The notes beneath the pieces are model-generated. The model ran no database searches. It saw only the letters and a program-made list of their open reading frames with translations, and was not told where the DNA came from. DNA of 64,000 bases from positions 96,001-160,000 of the IMG/VR virus record IMGVR_UViG_3300025924_000017; one strand, 5' to 3'. This DNA is from a virus. Lineage: Duplodnaviria; Caudoviricetes. The translations under genes were made by a program, and so were the position numbers. Positions 1 to 8,180 of this stretch are shown here, one piece after another; positions within the stretch are counted from its first letter, which is position 1, and every line of letters begins with the position of its first letter.

Positions 1-34
1 ACGTGCGGAGATTCGCACTGAGACGATCTGAATT

Positions 35-123
35 CAGAGTGTCGGGTAGCTTGGCTGATCTCGCCCGGTTTGGGGCCGGGAGTCGAAAGACACACGTTGG
101 TTCGAATCCAACCACTCTGACCA
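35..123 (+). tRNA. tRNA-Pro(UGG), 15-nt variable arm
   Basis: CAGAGTG/CACTCTG acceptor, CCCGG-TT TGG GG-CCGGG anticodon arm, TTCGAAT T-loop, encoded CCA. Confidence 0.9.
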
Positions 124-131
124 TTTTTAAT

Positions 132-206
132 CAGGCTTTAGCTCAGCAGGAGAGCGCCCGCTCGGGAAGCGGGAGGACGCTGTGGCAGTGACAGCAAGCC
201 TGACCA
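132..206 (+). tRNA. tRNA-Pro(GGG), non-canonical T-loop
   Basis: CAGGCTT/AAGCCTG acceptor, TAGCTCAG D-arm, CCCGC-TC GGG AA-GCGGG, T-arm GCTGT-GGCAGTG-ACAGC, CCA. Confidence 0.85.
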
Positions 207-281
207 GTTTCGTGCGGTGTCTGAGCGCTACAAATATCGGGAGACAGAAAAGCGAGACTTCCCGAGCCGCACTTCGAATTC

Positions 282-363
282 GCCGGTTTGGCTCAGCAGC
301 GACAGCAGCAGTTTTGTAAACTGCCATTCCACATCGGGGGTGCGAGTCCCTCAACCGGCACCA
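282..363 (+). tRNA. tRNA-Thr(UGU)
   Basis: GCCGGTT/AACCGGC acceptor, GCAGT-TT TGT AA-ACTGC, T-loop TGCGAGT, CCA. Confidence 0.85.
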
Positions 364-370
364 TCATCAT

Positions 371-445
371 GCCCTCGAATAAGAGAAAGCGCTTTGCGTC
401 ATTGGTAGTGACGAGAGGAACGGGCAGGTCGTTCCGGGGGCACCA
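371..445 (+). tRNA. tRNA-Thr(GGU), degenerate D-arm
   Basis: GCCCTCG/CGGGGGC acceptor, CGTCA-TT GGT AG-TGACG, T-arm GAACG-GGCAGGT-CGTTC, CCA; D-arm poorly paired. Confidence 0.7.
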
Positions 446-452
446 ACAACAC

Positions 453-527
453 GCCGACTAAATTGAGATAGCGTAAGACCGGACTCGTAATCTGGTAGGG
501 GTGGCGCAAGTCCACCAGTCGGCACCA
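453..527 (+). tRNA. tRNA-Thr(CGU), degenerate D-arm
   Basis: GCCGACT/AGTCGGC acceptor, CCGGA-CT CGT AA-TCTGG, T-arm GGTGG-CGCAAGT-CCACC, CCA. Confidence 0.75.
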
Positions 528-542
528 AATCAAATCGAATAT

Positions 543-632
543 GCGCTGGTGACCCGAGTAGCGAAGGGCTGAGACTCTTAATCTCATGATCTAAAAAATC
601 CATCGCGGGTGCGAGTCCCGCCCAGCACACCA
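543..632 (+). tRNA. tRNA-Lys(CUU), long variable region
   Basis: TGAGA-CT CTT AA-TCTCA anticodon arm, C2.A71 mismatch, 18-nt variable region, T-loop TGCGAGT, CCA. Confidence 0.8.
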
Positions 633-637
633 ATTGA

Positions 638-731
638 GCGCCGGTGACCCGAGAAGCGAAGGGCCGGGACTTTTAATCCTGTTTGGTGTTCAACACCATC
701 GTCGTGGGTGCGAGTCCCACTCGGCACACCA
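638..731 (+). tRNA. tRNA-Lys(UUU), long variable arm
   Basis: CGGGA-CT TTT AA-TCCTG, variable hairpin TGGTG-TTCAA-CACCA, C2.A71 mismatch, T-loop TGCGAGT, CCA. Confidence 0.8.
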
Positions 732-741
732 GTTTCAGTTT

Positions 742-825
742 GGCCCTATGGCGTAATAGTAGGCGCGCTGGCTTCAGATACCAGTGTCTTTGGACGTGGG
801 GGTGCAAGTCCCTCTAGGGCTACCA
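742..825 (+). tRNA. tRNA-Leu(CAG)
   Basis: GGCCCTA/TAGGGCT acceptor, loop TT CAG AT, class II arm, T-loop TGCAAGT, CCA. Confidence 0.85.
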
Positions 826-830
826 AATTT

Positions 831-915
831 GCTCCCGTGGCGGAACGGTAGACGCGCTCCCCTTAAAGCGGAGTGACCTCGTGTCGTGGGAGTTCGATTC
901 TCTCCGGGAGTACCA
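831..915 (+). tRNA. tRNA-Leu(UAA)
   Basis: GCTCCCG/CGGGAGT acceptor, loop CT TAA AG, Leu-type D-arm, TTCGATT, CCA. Confidence 0.88.
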
Positions 916-924
916 GAAGAATTT

Positions 925-1011
925 GTCCGGCTGATCGGAATCAGTAGACGTGCTCGGCTCAAACCCGAGTGCCCTTGTGGCGTAGAGGTGCAAGTCCTCT
1001 GCCGGACACCA
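925..1011 (+). tRNA. tRNA-Leu(CAA)
   Basis: GTCCGGC/GCCGGAC acceptor, CTCGG-CT CAA AC-CCGAG, T-loop TGCAAGT, CCA. Confidence 0.88.
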
Positions 1012-1015
1012 GTTT

Positions 1016-1099
1016 GCTCTTGTGGCGTAAAGGTAGGCGCGTTGGTTCGAGAAGCCAATGGGTAAAACCGTGGGGGTTCAAGTCCCTCCAAGAGCACCA
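1016..1099 (+). tRNA. tRNA-Leu(GAG)
   Basis: GCTCTTG/CAAGAGC acceptor, loop TC GAG AA, TTCAAGT, CCA. Confidence 0.88.
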
Positions 1100-1101
1100 A
1101 G

Positions 1102-1210
1102 TTGAGTGATCGCAAGCGTTAGGACCCTGTGCTGCTCCACGATGCACTGACAAGGTCTCACGGCGATTGAGAGAGGGCATCTCACGGCGGGTCCGCTCCG
1201 CACCACTCAA
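1102..1210 (+). ncRNA. candidate structured RNA in tRNA array
   Basis: TTGAGTG/CACTCAA and GGACCC/GGGTCC stems enclosing 2-3 hairpins; no CCA, no T-loop consensus. Confidence 0.45.
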
Positions 1211-1219
1211 ACAAAACAT

Positions 1220-1295
1220 GCTGACGTAGGACCTGAGGCTGGGTCGCCTGATTGTGAGTCAGGAGTGAGTGGTTCGATTCCGCACGTCAGTACCA
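1220..1295 (+). tRNA. tRNA-His(GUG), no G-1, A73
   Basis: GCTGACG/CGTCAGT acceptor, CCTGA-TT GTG AG-TCAGG, TTCGATT, CCA; base at -1 is T. Confidence 0.85.
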
Positions 1296-1304
1296 ATTCA
1301 ATTC

Positions 1305-1377
1305 GGGGTGTCCGCGAGGTCCGGACTTGATCTTTGCAAGATCGAAGCGGTGGGTGCGAGACCCACACACTCCGCCA
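1305..1377 (+). tRNA. atypical tRNA-Ala(UGC)
   Basis: GGGGTGT/ACACTCC acceptor with G3:U70, TGATC-TT TGC AA-GATCG, T-loop TGCGAGA, G73, short odd D-arm, CCA. Confidence 0.7.
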
Positions 1378-1384
1378 AGTATAT

Positions 1385-1460
1385 GGGCCTGTAGCTCAGT
1401 TGGGAGAGCGCCTGATTTGCACTCAGGATGTCGGGGGTTCAAATCCTCTCAGGTCCACCA
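1385..1460 (+). tRNA. tRNA-Ala(UGC), canonical
   Basis: GGGCCTG/CAGGTCC with G3:U70, canonical D- and T-arms, loop TT TGC AC, CCA. Confidence 0.92.
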
Positions 1461-1466
1461 ACATAC

Positions 1467-1553
1467 GGATGCTGAACCCGGCGCGGGCTGGGACTCGCCT
1501 CGAAAGCGATGGGAGCCTCACGGCTTGGAGATCGAGCCTTCCGGCATCCGCCA
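1467..1553 (+). tRNA. tRNA-Ser(CGA)
   Basis: GGATGCT/GGCATCC acceptor, loop CT CGA AA, variable hairpin, T-loop ATCGAGC, CCA. Confidence 0.8.
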
Positions 1554-1569
1554 ATCAAATGCGAAGAAG

Positions 1570-1863
1570 ATGAAGAAGATCGGAAAGAGATATCTGGAGC
1601 GAGCGCAATACTACCGACGTCTCGCGCACGCTACGTGTCCGACCTTGGACTTCTCCGATGAGGCGCTGCGCCGCTGCTACGAATGGGAGAGCCACGGTGT
1701 GCGCTGTAGCGATCCAGACAACGGATACATGACAGGCAAGTCGCTCGTGAACCTGAATGTCGCAATGTGGAAGGAAGACATCGTTCGCGGAACGCTTTTT
1801 CTGTTCGAGTTGCGTGAGGACCCTGACATTCCAGAATGGGTCTTGAAGAATTTCGGAGAGTGA
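1570..1863 (+). CDS. hypothetical protein (97 aa) inside tRNA array
   Basis: Protein-like part of ORF 1327-1863 from ATG 1570 (MKKIGKRYLER...); the upstream part of that ORF overlaps tRNAs. Confidence 0.7.
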   Translation: MKKIGKRYLERAQYYRRLAHATCPTLDFSDEALRRCYEWESHGVRCSDPDNGYMTGKSLVNLNVAMWKEDIVRGTLFLFELREDPDIPEWVLKNFGE

Positions 1864-1946
1864 ACCGAGCAGGGATGCCGGGCGCGTTTGCTAAACGATG
1901 CGGAGGCCGAAAGGCTTTTTCGGATCAAGACCGACGCTCTCCTCCA
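1855..1946 (+). tRNA. tRNA-Ser(GCU)
   Basis: GGAGAGT/GCTCTCC acceptor, loop TT GCT AA, long variable arm, T-loop ATCAAGA, U73, CCA; overlaps last 9 nt of upstream CDS. Confidence 0.8.
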
Positions 1947-1951
1947 GTCAT

Positions 1952-2043
1952 GGATGCTTGGCCGAGTGGCTTAAGGCGGCGGATTTGAAATCCGCAGGAC
2001 CTCACGCGAGGTTCCGTCCGTTCAAATCGGACAGCATCCTCCA
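1952..2043 (+). tRNA. tRNA-Ser(UGA)
   Basis: GGATGCT/AGCATCC, GCGGA-TT TGA AA-TCCGC, long arm, TTCAAAT, U73, CCA. Confidence 0.9.
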
Positions 2044-2113
2044 ATCTAGGGCCTAGCGCAGCGCAACGTCGCGGGAAGGGTGAGAGGGTAGCGTCGCGGC
2101 TACCCGCGTAATT

Positions 2114-2205
2114 GGAGAGTGAACCGGACACGCGTGCCGGGCCTGCTTGGAAAGCAACGCGGACGGTGCAAGCCGTTTGGGGCGCAAGTCCTCCGCTCTC
2201 CGCCA
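2114..2205 (+). tRNA. tRNA-Ser(GGA)
   Basis: GGAGAGT/GCTCTCC, loop TT GGA AA (weak stem), long arm, T-loop CGCAAGT, CCA. Confidence 0.78.
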
Positions 2206-2211
2206 AATCGC

Positions 2212-2243
2212 TTGACACGATCCACGTCAGTGTGCCATAGAAT
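2212..2243 (+). promoter_or_regulatory. sigma70-type promoter
   Basis: TTGACA at 2212 with CATAGA/TAGAAT at about 2236-2243. Confidence 0.5.
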
Positions 2244-2286
2244 GCGACATCGCGCTTCTGCACCGGCGCGTCGGCCTAACGGCTAG

Positions 2287-2380
2287 GCCGGAGGGTTCGT
2301 CGAAGGGCGGAGAGGAGCAGGCTACGAGCCTGCGACCACATTGGTCTGAAAATCCGCCGCCCTGCGATCAACCCTCCGGC
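2287..2380 (+). ncRNA. candidate structured RNA (multibranch)
   Basis: 11-bp closing stem GCCGGAGGGTT/AACCCTCCGGC, further helices, two internal hairpins; non-coding gap after a promoter. Confidence 0.5.
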
Positions 2381-2398
2381 TATCAATTTTGGAAGTCG

Positions 2399-2611
2399 AT
2401 GTCACCTGAAGCTCTCACTCTGATCGCTAAGCTCCACGAAGCCCGCGACAAGCAAAACGCACCCCACGCGATCTACGCAACCGATAGGCCTGAGATGCTG
2501 GCGCTCGTTGCCGAACTCGTTGAACACGGTTATCTCGTCAAGCGTGTGCGTCGGGAAGTCGATCCTTTCGATTCCTACATGACAACTGACAAGAGCCTCC
2601 CAAACGCATGA
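2399..2611 (+). CDS. hypothetical protein
   Basis: 70-aa ORF, GGAAG SD, start/stop coupling to next gene. Confidence 0.65.
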   Translation: MSPEALTLIAKLHEARDKQNAPHAIYATDRPEMLALVAELVEHGYLVKRVRREVDPFDSYMTTDKSLPNA

Positions 2612-2805
2612 GGCGGCGCAAGTCTTTTCCAGAACTCGAAGCGCGCGAGCGCGCGATCCGTGACAGCGACCACGCGCGGATAGCTCGGGGTTTGGAGCCG
2701 ATCCGCTGCCCACGATGCGGAGAGAACGCTTCGCACTTCTTCCCACCCTGTTTCGGCGACCCCGGCTTTTGGACGTGCGTCGGTGTCATGGTACCAGCCA
2801 CATGA
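2608..2805 (+). CDS. small Cys-containing hypothetical protein (possible Zn ribbon)
   Basis: CPRCGE motif plus two further Cys; ATGA overlaps at both ends. Confidence 0.6.
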   Translation: MRRRKSFPELEARERAIRDSDHARIARGLEPIRCPRCGENASHFFPPCFGDPGFWTCVGVMVPAT

Positions 2806-3023
2806 CGTGCAGCACCGCCAGACGCTACCAATACCTGAACGTCATCACCGACACCGGCGAGCGCAAGGTCTTGCGTGTCTCCGACGCCACCATGCGCCGC
2901 ATCACCGAAGCCGCCCACAAGGCTAAGAACCCGACGATCTGGCAGCGGATCGTGCGGGCGTTTAAGCGCGTCTTCGCATCTGTCGCGGATCGTGTCACAG
3001 CAGGGTTGACAAAACGACGCTGA
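2802..3023 (+). CDS. hypothetical protein
   Basis: ATG 2802 overlaps the previous stop; basic 73-aa product. Confidence 0.55.
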   Translation: MTCSTARRYQYLNVITDTGERKVLRVSDATMRRITEAAHKAKNPTIWQRIVRAFKRVFASVADRVTAGLTKRR

Positions 3024-3034
3024 GCGGATATGCC
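3006..3034 (+). promoter_or_regulatory. sigma70-type promoter
   Basis: TTGACA-17-TATGCC upstream of the SD-led ATG 3063. Confidence 0.45.
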
Positions 3035-3062
3035 GGGTCTTCGCCATGTGAAGGACCCGACA

Positions 3063-4904
3063 ATGCTTGACGCCCAGACCCTCGACCTCTTCAAGGTCAT
3101 TGTTCTCGACGAGTTTGCTGTGCCGCCGGAAGGGCTGAGCGCAAAGCCGTATCTGGAAGACCTCCAGCAGGGCTTCGTCACCAATTTCATCCCGACGCCC
3201 CTTCAGAGGGCCGCACTCTGCAAGGCGTTCAAGCCGCTTCCGCTGGTGACGCTGTTTTCGGTCGCCGAGCGCCGGGCGCCCGACATCACTCCGATGTCGC
3301 TGATCATGACGCAGCTTCTCCACTACATCGAGGTCTACGGCCTCGACCAGCCGGGCTTGTTCAATCTCGAAGTCAAGCAGGGTAGCGTCGTGGTTGTCGC
3401 CAACGTTCGCGGCGTGACGGTCGAGGAACTTGGCGACATGGTCCGCGCCCTGATCTACGCGAACGCGCCGGTCCGCAAGATCGAGGACGTGATCGAACTG
3501 ATCAAGTTCCACAACATTCCTTATGACCTCGCACTCGTGAAGAACAACGAAGCGCGCATCCGCTTGTACCGGGACGGCGATCAGTTTGCGTCCGGAGACG
3601 ACGCTGTCCGCTACATCGTCTTCAAGACGACCGGCGACTCGCTCCTGATCAAGTCCCCGGAAGTCGTCGCAGCCGTGAAGTCCGGCGAGCGACAGGTTTC
3701 GTTGCACTTCCTGATGGCGCACGAGACGGTCTTGGCGCAGGTGTTCAATCGCCACAAGCGCATCATCATGGCGTTGAAGAACCGGCGCACGGCACAGGCG
3801 ATCAACCGCATTTCGCGCTTCTCGAAGACGAAGCACGTCCCGCTCCGTCCGGCGCTCAACAAGACTTTCATCGCCCGCGCGCTCGGCGATCTGCCGTTCG
3901 ACTACGAGGACGCGCTGGAGGTCATCTCCCTGCGCGACAAGTTCAAGTACCTGAACCTGCTCGAATGGCGCCGCTTGCAGAATACCGATGACGTGTTCAT
4001 CATCCGCAACGGCCGCGCGCATTTGGAGCCGGATCGTAAGGTCTACCCCACCAAAGACATCACGGCGCTCATTATGAGTGTTGCGGACTCGATTGAGGCT
4101 GATCTGCGACATCTGCAAGGCAAGTCGATCCTGCTCGATCCCAATGTCGATTATGGTCTGCCGACCTCCCAGAAGCAGATGCTCGGCAGCCTGCCGTTCG
4201 GCACCACGATCTCGGTCGGTAACGGGAACATCTCGTCCGGCATCTATTGGGAGAACCGTTGGGGCGCGACCGATCTCGATCTGGCAGCCATCGACGAGTG
4301 GGGCGAACGCACCGGCTGGGGCGAGTTGTCCGGATTCGACAATAACAATCCGATCCTCTTCTCCGGCGACATCACGTCGGCACCTGAAGGCGCCATGGAG
4401 TTCATGACCTCGGCGACGACGGATTGTGAGCGCGTCTACGGACTGCTGGTGAACATCTTCAACGGGGGTAACGAGGCCGAATGCGAACTGCTCGTCGGCT
4501 CCCAGTTCGAAGGCAAGAACGGTCAGACGCGTTCCGGGCGATCCGCGAAGTGGATCAAGTCGCCGGTGATCCGGGAGAAGGTGAAGCTCACCTCTCGCGA
4601 GACGATCCTCGGCTTCGTACGGAACGGGAAGTTCGTCGTGTTCGCCCCGCGCCTGTCGAACCGCCGTGTGTCCGGCGGCGAGATCACGCGCCGTTTGATC
4701 GCGAAGGGCATGGCGCCGGTCTGGACGATCAGCAAGCTGCTCGCCGTTGCGGGAATCAAGTACGACACGACACCCGTTGACGGTGTTGTCTACGATTACG
4801 ATCTCTCGTACGCGTCGTTTTGTGTTGACAAAATGGAGCGCATGTTGTTCAATCCTCAGCAGGTTACGCCGCAAAAGACGTTCCTTACAGAAACAGCGGC
4901 CTAA
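3063..4904 (+). CDS. large conserved phage protein with helical N-terminus and TerD-like C-terminal domain
   Basis: AAGGA SD before ATG 3063; C-terminal motifs DLDLAA and FSGDITSAPEGAMEF resemble TerD-like domains (recalled, not searched). Confidence 0.6.
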   Translation: MLDAQTLDLFKVIVLDEFAVPPEGLSAKPYLEDLQQGFVTNFIPTPLQRAALCKAFKPLPLVTLFSVAERRAPDITPMSLIMTQLLHYIEVYGLDQPGLFNLEVKQGSVVVVANVRGVTVEELGDMVRALIYANAPVRKIEDVIELIKFHNIPYDLALVKNNEARIRLYRDGDQFASGDDAVRYIVFKTTGDSLLIKSPEVVAAVKSGERQVSLHFLMAHETVLAQVFNRHKRIIMALKNRRTAQAINRISRFSKTKHVPLRPALNKTFIARALGDLPFDYEDALEVISLRDKFKYLNLLEWRRLQNTDDVFIIRNGRAHLEPDRKVYPTKDITALIMSVADSIEADLRHLQGKSILLDPNVDYGLPTSQKQMLGSLPFGTTISVGNGNISSGIYWENRWGATDLDLAAIDEWGERTGWGELSGFDNNNPILFSGDITSAPEGAMEFMTSATTDCERVYGLLVNIFNGGNEAECELLVGSQFEGKNGQTRSGRSAKWIKSPVIREKVKLTSRETILGFVRNGKFVVFAPRLSNRRVSGGEITRRLIAKGMAPVWTISKLLAVAGIKYDTTPVDGVVYDYDLSYASFCVDKMERMLFNPQQVTPQKTFLTETAA

Positions 4905-5007
4905 AAAGCCGCTCCTAAAATACGTCTCGCGGTTTTCGATTTTGTTGCAAAGGGTGTTCCTTAAAAACCCTTCTATGGCAAACACACCCCGCAACGCTCT
5001 CTGCGAG

Positions 5008-5040
5008 AGGCCATCCGAAAGGATGGCCTTTTGCATTTTG
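5008..5040 (+). terminator. intrinsic terminator
   Basis: AGGCCATCC-GAAA-GGATGGCCT followed by TTTGCATTTT. Confidence 0.8.
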
Positions 5041-5044
5041 TTTC

Positions 5045-5073
5045 TTGACACGACTGCCGTGATATGAGACAAC
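5045..5073 (+). promoter_or_regulatory. promoter of leader/tRNA array 2
   Basis: TTGACA 5045-5050, 17 nt, then GACAAC (GAGACAAC is 6/8 to the Caulobacter-type GCTANAWC); predicted +1 at about 5080-5081. Confidence 0.6.
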
Positions 5074-5080
5074 CTTCTCC

Positions 5081-5179
5081 ATGAGCAAGACCTTTACCAA
5101 CGTGCAGCAAGTCGTCCGCCGGAATCGCTATATTCCGGGCGGGGCTTTCGCGCGTGTGGAGAAGGATCACGGGTTCTAA
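5081..5179 (+). CDS. putative leaderless attenuator leader peptide MSKTFTNVQQVVRRNRYIPGGAFARVEKDHGF
   Basis: ATG at predicted TSS, no SD; the ORF spans helices 1:2 and 2:3; codons 7-18 are all read by downstream tRNAs. Confidence 0.75.
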   Translation: MSKTFTNVQQVVRRNRYIPGGAFARVEKDHGF

Positions 5180-5247
5180 ACCCAAAAGCTCTCCAAAGTT
5201 CTGCGAAAGGCCCGCCCGGTAAGCTCCGAGCGGGCCTTTTGCTTTTT
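5115..5247 (+). promoter_or_regulatory. transcription attenuator (1:2, 2:3 antiterminator, 3:4 terminator)
   Basis: 5115-5125 pairs with 5132-5143; 5135-5151 pairs with 5203-5219 (16 bp, one G.G) plus 5157-5162 with 5190-5195; terminator 5206-5239 with U-tract to 5247. Confidence 0.8.
5206..5247 (+). terminator. intrinsic terminator upstream of tRNA array 2
   Basis: AAAGGCCCGC-C-CGG TAAGCT CCG-A-GCGGGCCTTT then TGCTTTTT. Confidence 0.85.
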
Positions 5248-5256
5248 GCCTTTCAC

Positions 5257-5342
5257 GCGGATGCGAACGAGAGGCGAGCGATTGACGGTCTGTAAAACCG
5301 TTGCCTATGGCTGAATGGGTTCAATTCCCATCATCCGCACCA
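5257..5342 (+). tRNA. tRNA-Tyr(GUA)
   Basis: GCGGATG/CATCCGC, ACGGT-CT GTA AA-ACCGT, class II arm, TTCAATT, CCA. Confidence 0.88.
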
Positions 5343-5378
5343 AGGCAAAAACGAGAAGGTACGCAAGGAGAAGAATTT

Positions 5379-5455
5379 GCTTCGGTAGCTCAGTTGGTAA
5401 GAGCGCTGGCTTGAAATCCCAGAGGTCGATGCGTCGAGTGCATCCCGGAGCACCA
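5379..5455 (+). tRNA. tRNA-Phe(GAA)
   Basis: GCTTCGG/CCGGAGC, loop TT GAA AT, T-arm GATGC-GTCGAGT-GCATC, CCA. Confidence 0.85.
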
Positions 5456-5460
5456 TACAC

Positions 5461-5536
5461 AGTCCGTTAGCTCATTCAGGAGAGCGCTGGTGTCACATAC
5501 CAGAGGCGCACGGGGCAGAGCCGTGACGGACTACCA
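5461..5536 (+). tRNA. tRNA-Val(CAC)
   Basis: AGTCCGT/ACGGACT, CTGGT-GT CAC AT-ACCAG, T-loop GGCAGAG, CCA. Confidence 0.82.
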
Positions 5537-5540
5537 GCTT

Positions 5541-5616
5541 CCACCCGAGGCTGACTAGTGAGGCGGGCACCTGATTAGTGCCGTCAAGGTGAGTGCGATC
5601 CTCACCGGGTGGTCCA
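5541..5616 (+). tRNA. atypical tRNA with GAU anticodon (Ile)
   Basis: CCACCCG/CGGGTGG, GGCAC-CT GAT TA-GTGCC, U37, U73, T-loop TGCGATC, CCA. Confidence 0.7.
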
Positions 5617-5624
5617 GTTTTCAG

Positions 5625-5654
5625 ATCAGCGATGGAGATTCGTCGCTGGTTTTT
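5625..5654 (+). terminator. terminator-like hairpin inside array 2
   Basis: 10-bp stem ATCAGCGATG/CGTCGCTGGT (two G:U), then TTTT. Confidence 0.45.
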
Positions 5655-5730
5655 AGTCCGATAGCTCATTCAGGAGAGCGCCGCTGTGACATGGCGGAGG
5701 TGCGCGGGGCAGAACCGCGTCGGACTACCA
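5655..5730 (+). tRNA. tRNA-Val(GAC)
   Basis: AGTCCGA/TCGGACT, CCGCT-GT GAC AT-GGCGG, T-loop GGCAGAA, CCA. Confidence 0.82.
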
Positions 5731-5736
5731 AATCAT

Positions 5737-5813
5737 TCTCCGTTAGCTGGTCGGTCTGGCCGCTGGGCTCTGAACCCGGAAAGAAGAACGTTCGAATCGT
5801 TCGCGGAGAGCCA
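5737..5813 (+). tRNA. tRNA-Gln(CUG)
   Basis: TCTCCGT/GCGGAGA (U1:A72), loop CT CTG AA, TTCGAAT, CCA. Confidence 0.85.
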
Positions 5814-5818
5814 AACAT

Positions 5819-5894
5819 TGCCCGTTAATTGCTAGGTGCGGTCGCCGGGTTTTGACCCCGGTAGGAAAAGGTTCGAATCCTTTGCGGGCATCCA
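5819..5894 (+). tRNA. tRNA-Gln(UUG)
   Basis: TGCCCGT/GCGGGCA, CCGGG-TT TTG AC-CCCGG, TTCGAAT, U73, CCA; weak D-arm. Confidence 0.8.
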
Positions 5895-5900
5895 GAACAT

Positions 5901-5985
5901 TCCCTTCTGGCGGAACGAGTAGACGCGCTGCACTGTTAATGCAGTATCGAAAGATGTGCAGGGGCGGAGCCTGCGGAGGGAGCCA
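5901..5985 (+). tRNA. tRNA-Asn(GUU), long variable arm
   Basis: TCCCTTC/GGAGGGA, CTGCA-CT GTT AA-TGCAG, ATC-GAAA-GAT arm, T-loop GGCGGAG, CCA. Confidence 0.8.
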
Positions 5986-5994
5986 ATCAAATTT

Positions 5995-6070
5995 TGGTGT
6001 GTAGCTCAGTCGGCAGAGCGGCGGATTGTTAATCCGAAGGTCGCAGGATCGTACCCTGCCACGCCAGCCA
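5995..6070 (+). tRNA. tRNA-Asn(GUU)
   Basis: TGGTGTG/CACGCCA, loop TT GTT AA, T-loop ATCGTAC, CCA. Confidence 0.82.
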
Positions 6071-6076
6071 AATTAT

Positions 6077-6158
6077 AGTCGCGAAGTGCTGAATGGAACG
6101 GAGGCAACGCACTACGAATGCGTAAACCCTGTGGGTTCGAGTCCCACCGCGACTACCA
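6077..6158 (+). tRNA. tRNA-Arg(ACG)
   Basis: AGTCGCG/CGCGACT, ACGCA-CT ACG AA-TGCGT, TTCGAGT, CCA; enlarged D region. Confidence 0.82.
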
Positions 6159-6165
6159 GTTTTGA

Positions 6166-6241
6166 CGTGCCGTCGCCTAAAGGTAAGGCCCTTCGCTCAT
6201 AACGACAGTGTATGTGAGTTCGATTCTCACCGGCACCACCA
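6166..6241 (+). tRNA. tRNA with CAU anticodon (Met/fMet/Ile2 unresolved)
   Basis: C1.C72 mismatch, loop CT CAT AA, only 3-bp anticodon stem, TTCGATT, CCA. Confidence 0.7.
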
Positions 6242-6244
6242 AAT

Positions 6245-6327
6245 GGCCCCGTAGCTCAGCGGACAGAGCGCCGGTCTTCTAAGCCGGGAAATCAACGTCG
6301 GGGGTTCGACTCCCTCCGGGGCTTCCA
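6245..6327 (+). tRNA. tRNA-Arg(UCU)
   Basis: GGCCCCG/CGGGGCT, loop CT TCT AA, 12-nt variable region, TTCGACT, CCA. Confidence 0.88.
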
Positions 6328-6333
6328 GATCAC

Positions 6334-6408
6334 AGCCGCGTAGCTCAACGGAAAGAGCGCCAGTTTCCGAAACTGAGGATCGGTGTTCGATTCACCGCGC
6401 GGCTACCA
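6334..6408 (+). tRNA. tRNA-Arg(CCG)
   Basis: AGCCGCG/CGCGGCT, CAGT-TT CCG AA-ACTG, TTCGATT, CCA. Confidence 0.88.
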
Positions 6409-6576
6409 GTTCCGCCCTGTCATCTTTCTTGTCGATAATGTCGTCGTTCTTGACGAATACTCACCTCTATCATAAAATGCGGCCCATCAAACATCGCTAC
6501 GTGCCGGGGGCTCGAATGCGGATCGTCAGGGCGCATTTTGTCGCGCCCCGAAGTCAAAGCACCAGAGGGTTGCGTA

Positions 6577-6906
6577 GTGGATATCAGCGACATCGAAACC
6601 GATACCGCCGACCGGCGGCGCGCTCGCGGCAAGAAGCCGTCGATCTTCAACTGGGAGATCAATTTCGGGCACGTGGCTATCGTGCTCTCACTTTTTCTGT
6701 CCGCAGCAGGCCTTTACGCGCACGATGAGGCGCGTATCTCGGTCATCGAGAGCCGGGTCGATGACCTGACCTCCCAAAATCTCCCGCCGCGCATGGCTGC
6801 CGCCGAGACGCAACTCCACGACATTCACGACAGCATGAAGGAGGTCACGAACCTCCTTGGTCAGATTCACAACGACCTGTCTCAGAAAGCGGATAAGCCA
6901 AAATAA
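6577..6906 (+). CDS. single-TM membrane protein with coiled coil
   Basis: GAGGG SD before GTG 6577; hydrophobic HVAIVLSLFLSAAGLY then heptad-like C-terminus. Confidence 0.7.
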   Translation: MDISDIETDTADRRRARGKKPSIFNWEINFGHVAIVLSLFLSAAGLYAHDEARISVIESRVDDLTSQNLPPRMAAAETQLHDIHDSMKEVTNLLGQIHNDLSQKADKPK

Positions 6907-7131
6907 TTACTTCATAACCGGCGTCATAAACTCCCGGCGTCCTGTTCATTCCGTGTTCATAATGTTGGAGATCAAGGCATTCGCGGACGAAAAGTCCGGA
7001 AAATAACATCCACTGTCGCCAAATTGGATATTGCACTTTACGGCGAATCCATGTCAGCAAGACGTTAAGCGGCAGAGCGGGACCAATGGGGTCGTTAGCC
7101 TGCGCGCCTTGTTCAGACGAGGAAAGCAAGA

Positions 7132-7347
7132 GTGCGTACAAGGAACGTTGAAGGGGAAAAGAAGGTTGCACCGGCCGCGAATTATTTTGCAGTCGATGAA
7201 ATTCATAAACGGCTCATTAGCCGTGCACACGAACTAGCGGAACTTTCGCTTCAACCTCTCACGCCGGAACTCGTCGGCGAAATGGAAGAAGCTTCCAAGC
7301 ACTTCAACACCGACCTCGCGGAACTCCGTTCGCGGCGCATCGTATAG
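7132..7347 (+). CDS. hypothetical protein
   Basis: 71-aa helical ORF, purine-rich SD, precedes phoH. Confidence 0.55.
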   Translation: MRTRNVEGEKKVAPAANYFAVDEIHKRLISRAHELAELSLQPLTPELVGEMEEASKHFNTDLAELRSRRIV

Positions 7348-7373
7348 CGAGGTTTCACATCAGGGGAGAGTAG

Positions 7374-8180
7374 GTGGATCAGCCTAACGAGTTTTTCGAG
7401 CAAGCATCTCCGCCACCCCGTCTCACCAAATCGCAAGCAAGAGCAGCGCGCCGGGCCGAAAAGGCTTCTACGGGTGGTTCCGGCGCGCCTCTTACAGCCA
7501 AGACCGACAATCAGCGCCGGTATATCGACCGCCTCAAGCGCGGCCAGAGTTTGTTCGCTATCGGACCAGCGGGAACCGGCAAAACCTACCTCCCTGCGCG
7601 GATCGCGGCGCGCAAGCTCCTCGACAAGCAACTCGACAAGTTCATCATCGTGCGCGCCACCGTGGAACCCAACAAGCGCCACGCGCTCGGTTTCAAACCC
7701 GGCAAGCAGGACGACAAGCTGGCGCCGTGGATGATCCCGGTGCTGGACGGCCTGCGCGCGGAGATGAGCGGCGTCGTCCTCGACAAGCTCAAGAACGAGA
7801 AGCGGATCGAGTTCGCGCCTTTCGAAAGTATGCGAGGCCGCACGTTCAACAACGCGATCCTTCTGATCGATGAGGCCCAGAATCTCACGACCGCCGACCT
7901 CAAACTGGTTTTGACGCGTATCGGCGAGGACTGTCAGGTGATCGTCACCGGGGATACCGAACAGACCGATATCCCGGATTCCGGCCTTGCGCGCGTCGTC
8001 GCGATGACGCGCCGTCACCAGATCGAGATGCCTGTGGTCGTCTTTGACGAGGATGATGTGGTGCGCAGCGCCATGACCAAGGCATGGGTCAAGGCATTTG
8101 CCGCAGAATTTGGCAGTACTGCCGCATTTCTTGACGACCCTCCGGCGTTCCTGCAAAATGGCCGCTTAGTTCCCCAGTAA
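7374..8180 (+). CDS. phoH: PhoH-family ATPase
   Basis: GPAGTGKT Walker A, MRGRTF, LIDEAQN, TRIG and VTGDTEQTD motifs. Confidence 0.95.
   Translation: MDQPNEFFEQASPPPRLTKSQARAARRAEKASTGGSGAPLTAKTDNQRRYIDRLKRGQSLFAIGPAGTGKTYLPARIAARKLLDKQLDKFIIVRATVEPNKRHALGFKPGKQDDKLAPWMIPVLDGLRAEMSGVVLDKLKNEKRIEFAPFESMRGRTFNNAILLIDEAQNLTTADLKLVLTRIGEDCQVIVTGDTEQTDIPDSGLARVVAMTRRHQIEMPVVVFDEDDVVRSAMTKAWVKAFAAEFGSTAAFLDDPPAFLQNGRLVPQ

Follow-up and report, generated by a model that had tools for sequence, protein, structure and literature searches.

Leader 2 and the tRNA Array Downstream

The DNA analysed in this study (the window, 64,000 nucleotides) covers bases 96,001–160,000 of the single 225,611-bp contig (G+C 59%) of the IMG/VR virus record IMGVR_UViG_3300025924_000017. 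A small open reading frame (ORF) of 32 codons, hereafter leader 2, was found directly upstream of a block of 13 transfer RNA (tRNA) genes, array 2, on the same strand. What lies downstream of leader 2 is 13 tRNAs and zero protein genes. The tail-tube protein of the genome shared 54–60% identity with proteins of Caulobacter and Brevundimonas phages, and judged by this protein the genome is that of a phiCbK-like giant siphophage (Dolichocephalovirinae). Eight lineages were compared, namely phiCbK, BL10/Rogue, CcrSC, Colossus, PW, Bajun, Gurke and the present phage; the cultured relatives include phages of the model bacterium Caulobacter crescentus, for example phiCbK. The record of phage Marchewka is cut at its origin, inside array 2.

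Codon 5 of leader 2 is TTT (Phe, 5093–5095), and codons 7–18 (5099–5134) are AAC, GTG, CAG, CAA, GTC, GTC, CGC, CGG, AAT, CGC, TAT and ATT, which encode Asn, Val, Gln, Gln, Val, Val, Arg, Arg, Asn, Arg, Tyr and Ile. The run lies 123 nt upstream of array 2; all 12 of its codons are read by tRNAs of this array, and 9 of the 12 array-2 anticodons are sampled. An initial annotation of this DNA had listed the same codons, paired codon 5 with tRNA-Phe(GAA) and claimed that the array at 5257–6408 reads every codon of the run. The listed codons match the sequence exactly, the Phe tRNA is present in array 2, and the count of 12/12 was upheld with two Val genes that were added by our cloverleaf scan. 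The annotation had also named Arg UCU as the only unsampled tRNA; Arg UCU is indeed unsampled, and so is Met CAU, except for the start codon.

Array 2 encodes Tyr GUA, Phe GAA, Val CAC, Ile GAU, Val GAC, Gln CUG, Gln UUG, Asn GUU (two copies), Arg ACG, Met CAU, Arg UCU and Arg CCG. ARAGORN with default settings called 9 of the 13 genes (Phe GAA, Gln CUG, Gln UUG, both Asn GUU, Arg ACG, Met CAU, Arg UCU and Arg CCG). The Tyr gene (5257–5339) was recovered by the Rfam tRNA model with 35.7 bits, and its anticodon GTA was read off the sequence directly, while Ile GAU (5541–5616) was called by ARAGORN at the relaxed 95% threshold. Val CAC (5461–5536) and Val GAC (5655–5730) were missed by both ARAGORN and Rfam because of their T-loops, GGCAGAG and GGCAGAA. 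In our own cloverleaf scan both Val genes had perfect cloverleaf stems, and each aligned along its whole length with the canonical Val tRNA that occupies the syntenic position in the relatives. The array starts 3 nt past the U-tract of the terminator that follows leader 2 (14 nt past the terminator stem), which leaves no space for a promoter of its own, so that its transcription needs read-through.

A promoter-like element precedes leader 2 (Table 1), and the ATG lies 7 nt beyond its -10-like hexamer. The distance from the -35 element to the ATG was 30 nt in seven of the eight lineages and 31 nt in CcrSC, and the alignment was gap-free. Because this distance is fixed (17-nt spacer, 6-nt -10 element and 7 nt), the leader-2 mRNA is probably leaderless, starting from the predicted start site. 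Leaderless mRNAs are common in Caulobacter, and a leaderless mRNA would explain why leader 2 has no Shine–Dalgarno sequence. The same TTGACA promoter motif precedes the leaders of array 1 and of the Glu/Asp array, which are described below.

Table 1. Positions in the window of leader 2, its predicted regulatory elements and the tRNA arrays.
Feature	Position	Strand	Remarks
Terminator of the preceding gene	5002–5035		upstream of the leader-2 promoter
Promoter-like element	5046–5074	+	-35 TTGACA (5046–5051), 17-nt spacer, -10-like GACAAC (5069–5074)
Leader ORF (leader 2)	5081–5179	+	32 codons; ATG 5081, TAA 5177–5179
Putative regulatory codons 5 and 7–18	5093–5134	+	all read by array-2 tRNAs
Predicted segment 1	5097–5125	+	5' arm of the 1:2 hairpin, inside the codon run; minimum-free-energy fold
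Predicted segment 2	5132–5155	+	pairs with segment 1 or 3; core is a near copy of segment 4
Predicted segment 3	5202–5219	+	5' arm of the terminator and partner of segment 2
Predicted segment 4	5226–5254	+	3' arm of the terminator (5226–5242), then U-tract (5243–5254)
tRNA array 2	5257–6408	+	13 genes
tRNA array 1, part within the window	35–2043	+	Pro, Thr, Lys, Leu, His, Ala, Ser

Composition of the Leader-2 Run

Codon usage was trained on 285 ORFs (self-trained genes), and the codons that array 2 can read made up 33.8% of coding codons, near the naive 20/61. Under this codon-usage null, the probability of a run of at least 12 such codons was 2.2e-6 per position and 3.2e-5 per 32-codon ORF. 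Six frames of the 225.6-kb genome offer ~451,000 codon positions, and the run in leader 2 was the sole run of at least 12 among them; in predicted genes, no array-2-readable run exceeded 8. Extrapolating the decay of run lengths gives an expectation of ~0.5 runs of 12 or more codons for the genome as a whole. The run is thus by itself unremarkable, and its placement is the informative quantity. The probability that such a run falls within 300 nt upstream of array 2 on the same strand was ~3e-4 to 7e-4. The codon match thus survived both the codon-usage null and the correction for choosing the placement after the fact. The same was not true of the claim that both Gln, both Val and two Arg isoacceptors are sampled by distinct synonyms, which was not significant in synonymous resampling (P = 0.18–0.27).

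The comparison with relatives showed that the composition of the run was kept while its sequence drifted. Leader 2 has homologues of 30–32 codons at the corresponding site of all seven relatives (phiCbK, BL10/Rogue, CcrSC, Colossus, PW, Bajun and Gurke), and their runs consist of 14–15 codons for Tyr, Arg, Gln, Asn, Phe, Val and Ile, for example YRQFVRQIQVVRNIR in phiCbK and YRNNVRQIRVRQFN in Colossus. Within the set {Y,F,V,I,Q,N,R,M} fell 115 of 116 run residues. In each locus of 11–42 kb, the relative's run was the longest and the sole in-set run of at least 11 codons in any frame, with the exception of Bajun, which also has a shorter, off-frame, Arg-rich run of 12 codons. There were at least 13 substitutions among the runs of the seven relatives, including radical ones such as Phe/Asn, Val/Arg and Ile/Asn, and 13 of 13 stayed within the set (BLOSUM62 expectation for in-set exchange 36%, P = 1.5e-6). 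Past the run, in the C-terminal third of the peptide, 35% of the residues were in-set, which is the background level. Since the pattern is frame-specific, confined to the part upstream of segment 2, blind to residue chemistry and, for each leader, specific to its own array, it points to selection at the level of decoding, the only explanation that we found for it.

The syntenic arrays {Trp, Gly}, {Glu, Asp}, {Pro ... Ser} and {Tyr/Phe ... Arg} were present in all seven relatives, and the last three arrays of each relative were preceded by a small ORF and then a hairpin. The existing annotations of phiCbK and Colossus list several of these hairpins as rho-independent terminators. The units of promoter, leader ORF and terminator before the syntenic arrays were kept in all eight lineages.

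Leader codons were also compared with the tRNA content of the arrays. The arrays are almost identical in the subfamily, so this covariation test has little power, and the covariation was weak. One event fits: the sole relocation of a tRNA between arrays was seen in CcrSC, where tRNA-Trp stands at the end of array 1 (L047:6946-7018) and not with Gly, and the CcrSC array-1 leader (L047:5358-5477) is the sole array-1 leader with a Trp codon, a coincidence with a probability of roughly 0.1 by itself. Phages with tRNA-Asn mostly had Asn codons early in the leader-2 run; the phiCbK type, with tRNA-Ile(AAU) at the syntenic place, had one late Asn codon, in a structural loop. The number of run codons read by a phage's own detectable array ranged from 12/15 to 14/14. 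The unread codons were Arg CGY and the late Asn codon of phiCbK-type leaders, and the CGY codons may have been missed because Arg ACG tRNAs in these phages went undetected.

Alternative Pairings in the Leader-2 RNA

The unconstrained fold of the present phage's RNA contained a long 1:2 hairpin (5097–5159) and a terminator hairpin (5203–5242) with a U-tract. The free energy of the terminator hairpin is ~-31 kcal/mol, and TTTTTG comes after it. The hairpin is conserved with compensatory pairs in all eight lineages, and the homologous site of phiCbK is annotated as a rho-independent terminator; a simple terminator scanner missed it in the present phage because its stem is interrupted. In the RNA alignment of the eight phages, the inner 1:2 helix (RNAalifold columns 27-31 / 48-53) also showed compensatory changes.

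The alternative to the terminator is a 2:3 helix, in which 5135–5152 pairs with 5202–5219 and which is mutually exclusive with the terminator. Over the eight phages this antiterminator helix was 86% paired with three compensatory pairs, and its covariation score was reached by only 1 of 500 shuffles; the helix collapsed once the pairing register was slid. The computed energy of the 2:3 duplex was -30 to -40 kcal/mol in all eight phages, at least as strong as the 3:4 pairing; shuffled segment 2 gave only -15 to -20 kcal/mol, and the observed value was reached in 0 of 300 shuffles per phage. A triple change in CcrSC at columns 68, 148 and 163 (A/T/A) keeps both alternative pairings, which is direct support for two competing pairings.

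The effect of a ribosome was modelled by masking the RNA that it would cover. With the A site at codons 1–7 or 9–14 in the present phage, the 2:3 helix replaced the terminator; a mask at the stop codon, or anywhere from codon 15 onward, brought the terminator back. When nascent transcripts were cut before segment 4, the antiterminator formed if the ribosome was absent or stalled up to about codon 14, and it was lost when the ribosome covered segment 2 (beyond about codon 16). This switching of nascent transcripts was seen in six of the eight phages (the present phage, phiCbK, BL10, CcrSC, Colossus and PW). The folding therefore reproduced the expectation of the initial annotation that stalls up to about codon 14 would be the effective ones and that later ones would cover segment 2.

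Leaders of the Other tRNA Arrays

The initial annotation had predicted that array 1 would have its own leader, upstream of the window and rich in Pro, Thr, Lys, Leu, His, Ala and Ser codons. We found this leader (leader 1) as a 31-codon ORF at genome positions 95,670–95,765 (L026:7670-7765), just upstream of the window, together with the first gene of array 1, Pro CGG. Of its 30 codons considered, 26 were for Pro, Thr, Lys, Leu, His, Ala or Ser. This set is identical to that served by array 1, which when non-canonical genes are included carries 3 Pro, 3 Thr, 2 Lys, 4 Leu, 1 His, 2 Ala and 3–4 Ser genes. Leader 1 sampled 16 of the 18 array-1 anticodons (P = 0.013 in synonymous resampling); for example, its Pro codons CCG, CCT and CCA correspond to the anticodons CGG, GGG and UGG, and its Thr codons ACA, ACC and ACG to UGU, GGU and CGU. 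In six frames of the genome, 12 loci reached 26/30 array-1 residues, mostly off-frame low-complexity stretches of Ala, Ser, Thr and Pro, and the placement probability of leader 1 was ~0.008 at the amino-acid level. In nine phages, the in-set codons of leader 1 ranged from 26/30 to 42/44, and each leader contained all seven amino-acid types, rare His included. Leader 1, which was predicted a priori, is an independent replicate of the codon match of leader 2.

The structure after leader 1 varied. In phiCbK, BL10, Bajun and Gurke, leader 1 was followed by an ordinary terminator, and in the present phage by two GC hairpins that exclude each other and a C-rich tract; a U-run is absent there.

The leader of the Glu/Asp array matched its array only weakly. 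It has two Glu codons and one Asp codon, which overlap structural RNA segments, and for this reason we did not count it as evidence of mirroring; its isoacceptor sampling was not significant in synonymous resampling. Its stop codon lies within the terminator loop, and its logic may differ from that of leaders 1 and 2.

A possible fourth unit was noticed past the window end at genome positions 162,950–163,295. A TTGACA promoter is followed there by an ORF of 23 codons, two of them for Cys (163,053–163,124), then by a canonical terminator (~163,150–163,195) and tRNA-Cys (163,220). In public records, array-1 leaders appear as hypothetical proteins (L027:13541-13678, which is phiCbK gp335, L031:6678-6815, L029:4880-5008 and L047:5358-5477), and leader 2 and the Glu/Asp leaders are unannotated.

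Proposed Mechanism and Alternative Explanations

We believe, with fair but not full confidence, that leader 2 belongs to a ribosome-mediated (leader-peptide) transcription attenuator controlling the block of phage tRNA genes behind it. The promoter would give a leaderless mRNA whose first 32 codons are translated; we infer this translation solely from the frame-specific selection on composition. Codons 5–18 are nearly all drawn from the codons decoded by the 13 downstream tRNAs. If any cognate aminoacyl-tRNA became scarce, the ribosome would pause within about the first 14 codons, on segment 1. The paused ribosome would leave segment 2 free to form the 2:3 antiterminator, and RNA polymerase would continue into the tRNA array. 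With fast decoding, the ribosome would move over segment 2 toward the stop codon, the 3:4 terminator would form, and the tRNA genes would remain untranscribed. The outcome would be a negative feedback on decoding capacity for 7–8 amino acids through one leader. The Pro/Thr/Lys/Leu/His/Ala/Ser array would be gated by a sister unit, and so, though with less clarity, would the Glu/Asp array. The initial annotation had regarded leader 2 as a multiplexed sensor for a panel of tRNAs, and this idea is supported by the codon match, the array-1 leader, the conservation and the folding models; its part on synonymous isoacceptor sampling was not supported for leader 2.

Several findings weigh against this explanation. 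Leader 2 lacks a Shine–Dalgarno sequence, so its translation depends on the inferred leaderless start, and its isoacceptor-level match was not significant. Bajun and Gurke did not switch in the co-transcriptional proxy, and the full-length equilibrium folds switched in only three of the eight phages. The equilibrium result is what would be expected for a kinetic device, and we regard the modelling as supportive rather than decisive. The 2:3 pairing is stronger than the 1:2 hairpin in most relatives, and absence of translation would therefore mean read-through, unlike in the trp paradigm. In the present phage, the array-1 and Glu/Asp leaders have no U-tract terminators. The codons also contain misfits: phiCbK-type arrays without tRNA-Asn still keep one Asn codon, CcrSC has tRNA-Asn and no early Asn codon, and there is a stray Trp codon in the PW leader 2 and a stray Tyr codon in the Gurke leader 1.

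We considered whether the leaders might sense nothing, being untranslated structured 5' leaders or functional micropeptides, with the terminators as leaky insulators that permit constant low transcription of the tRNAs. The missing Shine–Dalgarno sequence would fit such a role, the phiCbK genome paper annotates gp335 as an ordinary hypothetical protein and does not mention attenuation, and some codons of the leaders fall in conserved RNA segments, where the RNA could constrain them (for example the GTC GTC CGG AAT block in segment 1). A constraint on the RNA does not, however, predict, any more than a folded micropeptide would, that chemically unrelated residues interchange and still stay within the set, or that composition is kept in one frame only and upstream of segment 2 only while residue order is scrambled. 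The exclusion of AT-rich Lys, Glu and Asp codons and the inclusion of GC-rich Arg codons argue against an effect of base composition, and the two leaders differ in composition, each matching its own array. We therefore hold such a sensor-free role to be unlikely. That a high-GC genome produced the codon match by chance is a thought invited by the ~0.5 runs expected in six frames and by the 12 loci that equal leader 1 in composition; the placement of the two leaders (~3e-4 to 7e-4 for leader 2 and ~8e-3 for leader 1) speaks against it, and the recurrence of the match in eight diverged lineages with set-preserving substitutions has effectively refuted it.

The logic of the switch could also be opposite or different, as in a coupling sensor like that of pyrBI or a Rho-dependent device, so that efficient decoding gives more tRNA transcription and stalling gives termination. 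Here a ribosome following closely behind the polymerase would break up the terminator or block access of Rho to a loading site. The Glu/Asp leaders of phiCbK, BL10 and Gurke lend themselves to this logic, because with the stop codon in the terminator loop and the Asp codon in its 5' arm, a ribosome near the end of the ORF would occlude the terminator; so do the two GC hairpins and the C-rich tract behind leader 1 of the present phage. For leader 2, on the other hand, the stop codon lies 24 nt upstream of the 5' arm of the terminator, which would leave a terminating ribosome out of reach. Segment 2 is moreover a conserved mimic of segment 4, and the compensatory changes back a 2:3 antiterminator that needs segment 2 uncovered. 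We regard this reversed logic as quite improbable.

If leader 2 is an attenuator in which slow decoding permits read-through, cultured relatives such as phiCbK probably also transcribe the tRNAs of their arrays only when the leader codons are read slowly. As these units are present in phiCbK and its relatives, the proposal can be tested in Caulobacter crescentus. More speculatively, and with less confidence than in the attenuator itself, we suggest that giant phages could carry multiplexed "decoding-speed meters", each leader sampling codons for up to eight amino acids and switching on the matching tRNA block on demand, which would amount to homeostatic control of the tRNA pool in the infected cell. 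Such meters might also compensate automatically for the loss of particular tRNAs, whether the host itself causes this loss or a host defence such as an anticodon nuclease.

Other Observations on the tRNA Genes and the Locus

The tRNAs of the phage cover all 20 amino acids, and a transfer-messenger RNA gene is also present (genome 93,149–102,408, 163,220 and 166,167). The tRNA genes form fixed blocks, {Trp, Gly}, {Glu, Asp}, {Pro, Thr, Lys, Leu, His, Ala, Ser}, {Tyr, Phe, Val, Ile, Gln, Asn, Arg, Met}, Cys and Met, and this block structure is conserved throughout the subfamily.

At least seven tRNA genes have a non-canonical T-loop, GGCAGNN or GGCGGAG instead of TTCRANY, in otherwise perfect cloverleaves. 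These are Val CAC, Val GAC, Pro GGG, Thr GGU, one Asn, the second Asp and Glu UUC (window 5461–5536, 5655–5730, 132–206, 371–445 and 5901–5985; genome 94,942–95,016 and 94,670–94,745). The two Val copies differ from each other by compensatory stem changes. Most of these genes are missed by default ARAGORN and the Rfam tRNA model, and the syntenic genes of the relatives have normal T-loops.

The 3' half and trailer of tRNA-Pro(CGG) occur as a tandem repeat directly after the gene (L026:7915-8000 and window 1–10). The two tRNA-Lys genes (window 543–632 and 638–731) are long, 90–94 nt, and their syntenic counterparts in relatives (L027, L028 and L030) measure 87–91 nt; this length implies an extended variable region, which is atypical of tRNA-Lys. 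In phiCbK, BL10 and Rogue, a tRNA with the anticodon AAU (L027:16233-16307, L031:9483-9557 and L038:7005) stands where other lineages carry tRNA-Asn(GUU); it would be an Ile tRNA if A34 is deaminated.

Between arrays 1 and 2 lies a 624-aa ORF (window 3030–4904) that was found in the present phage only and had no Pfam match. The only homologues were those of the cyanophages S-CBWM1 and S-CRM01 and of the gut phage Phass-1 (25–28% identity) and one on an IMG/VR contig without nearby tRNAs (46%). IMG/VR searches with this 624-aa neighbour protein, PhoH, a Val-tRNA word and the segment-2/segment-3 pattern returned only unrelated contigs or copies of known isolates. A blastn search of the region against phage records gave generic tRNA similarity only. 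Erythrobacter phage XM05 has a homologue of the tail-tube protein, near which no tRNA arrays were seen.

Comparison with Known Regulatory Systems

Phage tRNA genes are usually viewed as constitutive supplements for codon usage or as spares against cleavage of host tRNAs. Our literature search for attenuation of phage or cellular tRNA genes found no description, and the text of the phiCbK genome paper contains neither "leader" nor "attenuat". One candidate precedent, E. coli tRNA-Phe with a Phe-rich leader, was rejected because the pheV promoter abuts the tRNA and there is no leader ORF. If the proposal is true, it would be the first case found in which tRNA genes are regulated through decoding of the codons that they serve, and it would widen attenuation from 1–3 amino acids to a panel of 7–8. 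It would also explain the fixed amino-acid blocks of tRNA genes, with each block as one regulatory unit, and would re-annotate both the "hypothetical proteins" of the phiCbK gp335 type and the "terminators" oddly placed before tRNA genes, phiCbK being a well-studied laboratory model. The units would further provide a system for studying transcription–translation coupling and leaderless translation in Caulobacter, and a compact natural sensor of tRNA availability.

T-box riboswitches are similar in that the state of a tRNA is sensed and a terminator/antiterminator switch stands upstream of translation-related genes. Unlike in the proposed system, where the ribosome would be the sensor, T-boxes bind uncharged tRNA through a specifier loop and the T-box sequence, without translation. 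A cmscan search of window positions 1–8000 against Rfam, with E up to 1, gave no T-box match; over 5040–5260 it returned only the 5' edge of the first tRNA (5257–5339) and no leader or T-box family.

Among the closest systems are the multivalent attenuators of enterobacterial amino-acid operons. For example, the ilvGMEDA leader has Leu, Ile and Val codons, and thrL has Thr and Ile codons. As in these systems, a short ORF stands right after the promoter with regulatory codons for more than one amino acid, and competing 1:2, 2:3 and 3:4 pairings and an intrinsic terminator precede the regulated genes. The phage leaders differ from them in several respects. ilvGMEDA and thrL control biosynthetic enzymes, whereas the phage leaders would regulate tRNAs and feed back on decoding capacity, not on amino-acid supply. 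Instead of long repeats for one to three amino acids, the phage panel covers 7–8 amino acids, mostly with 1–3 codons each. The phage mRNA is also probably leaderless, and there is no sequence similarity.

The pheM leader attenuates the pheST operon, which encodes phenylalanyl-tRNA synthetase, and in this case too a component of the translation apparatus is under leader-peptide attenuation by decoding of cognate codons. Unlike the phage leaders, pheM responds to one amino acid only, and its target is a protein-coding gene of a cellular organism. The genes regulated by classical leader-peptide attenuators, as far as we know, all encode enzymes of amino-acid biosynthesis or aminoacyl-tRNA synthetases, and the 13 tRNAs behind leader 2 do not belong to these target classes. 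Judged by its sequence, the putative attenuator of leader 2 thus combines the classical leader-peptide anatomy with tRNA genes as a new kind of target.

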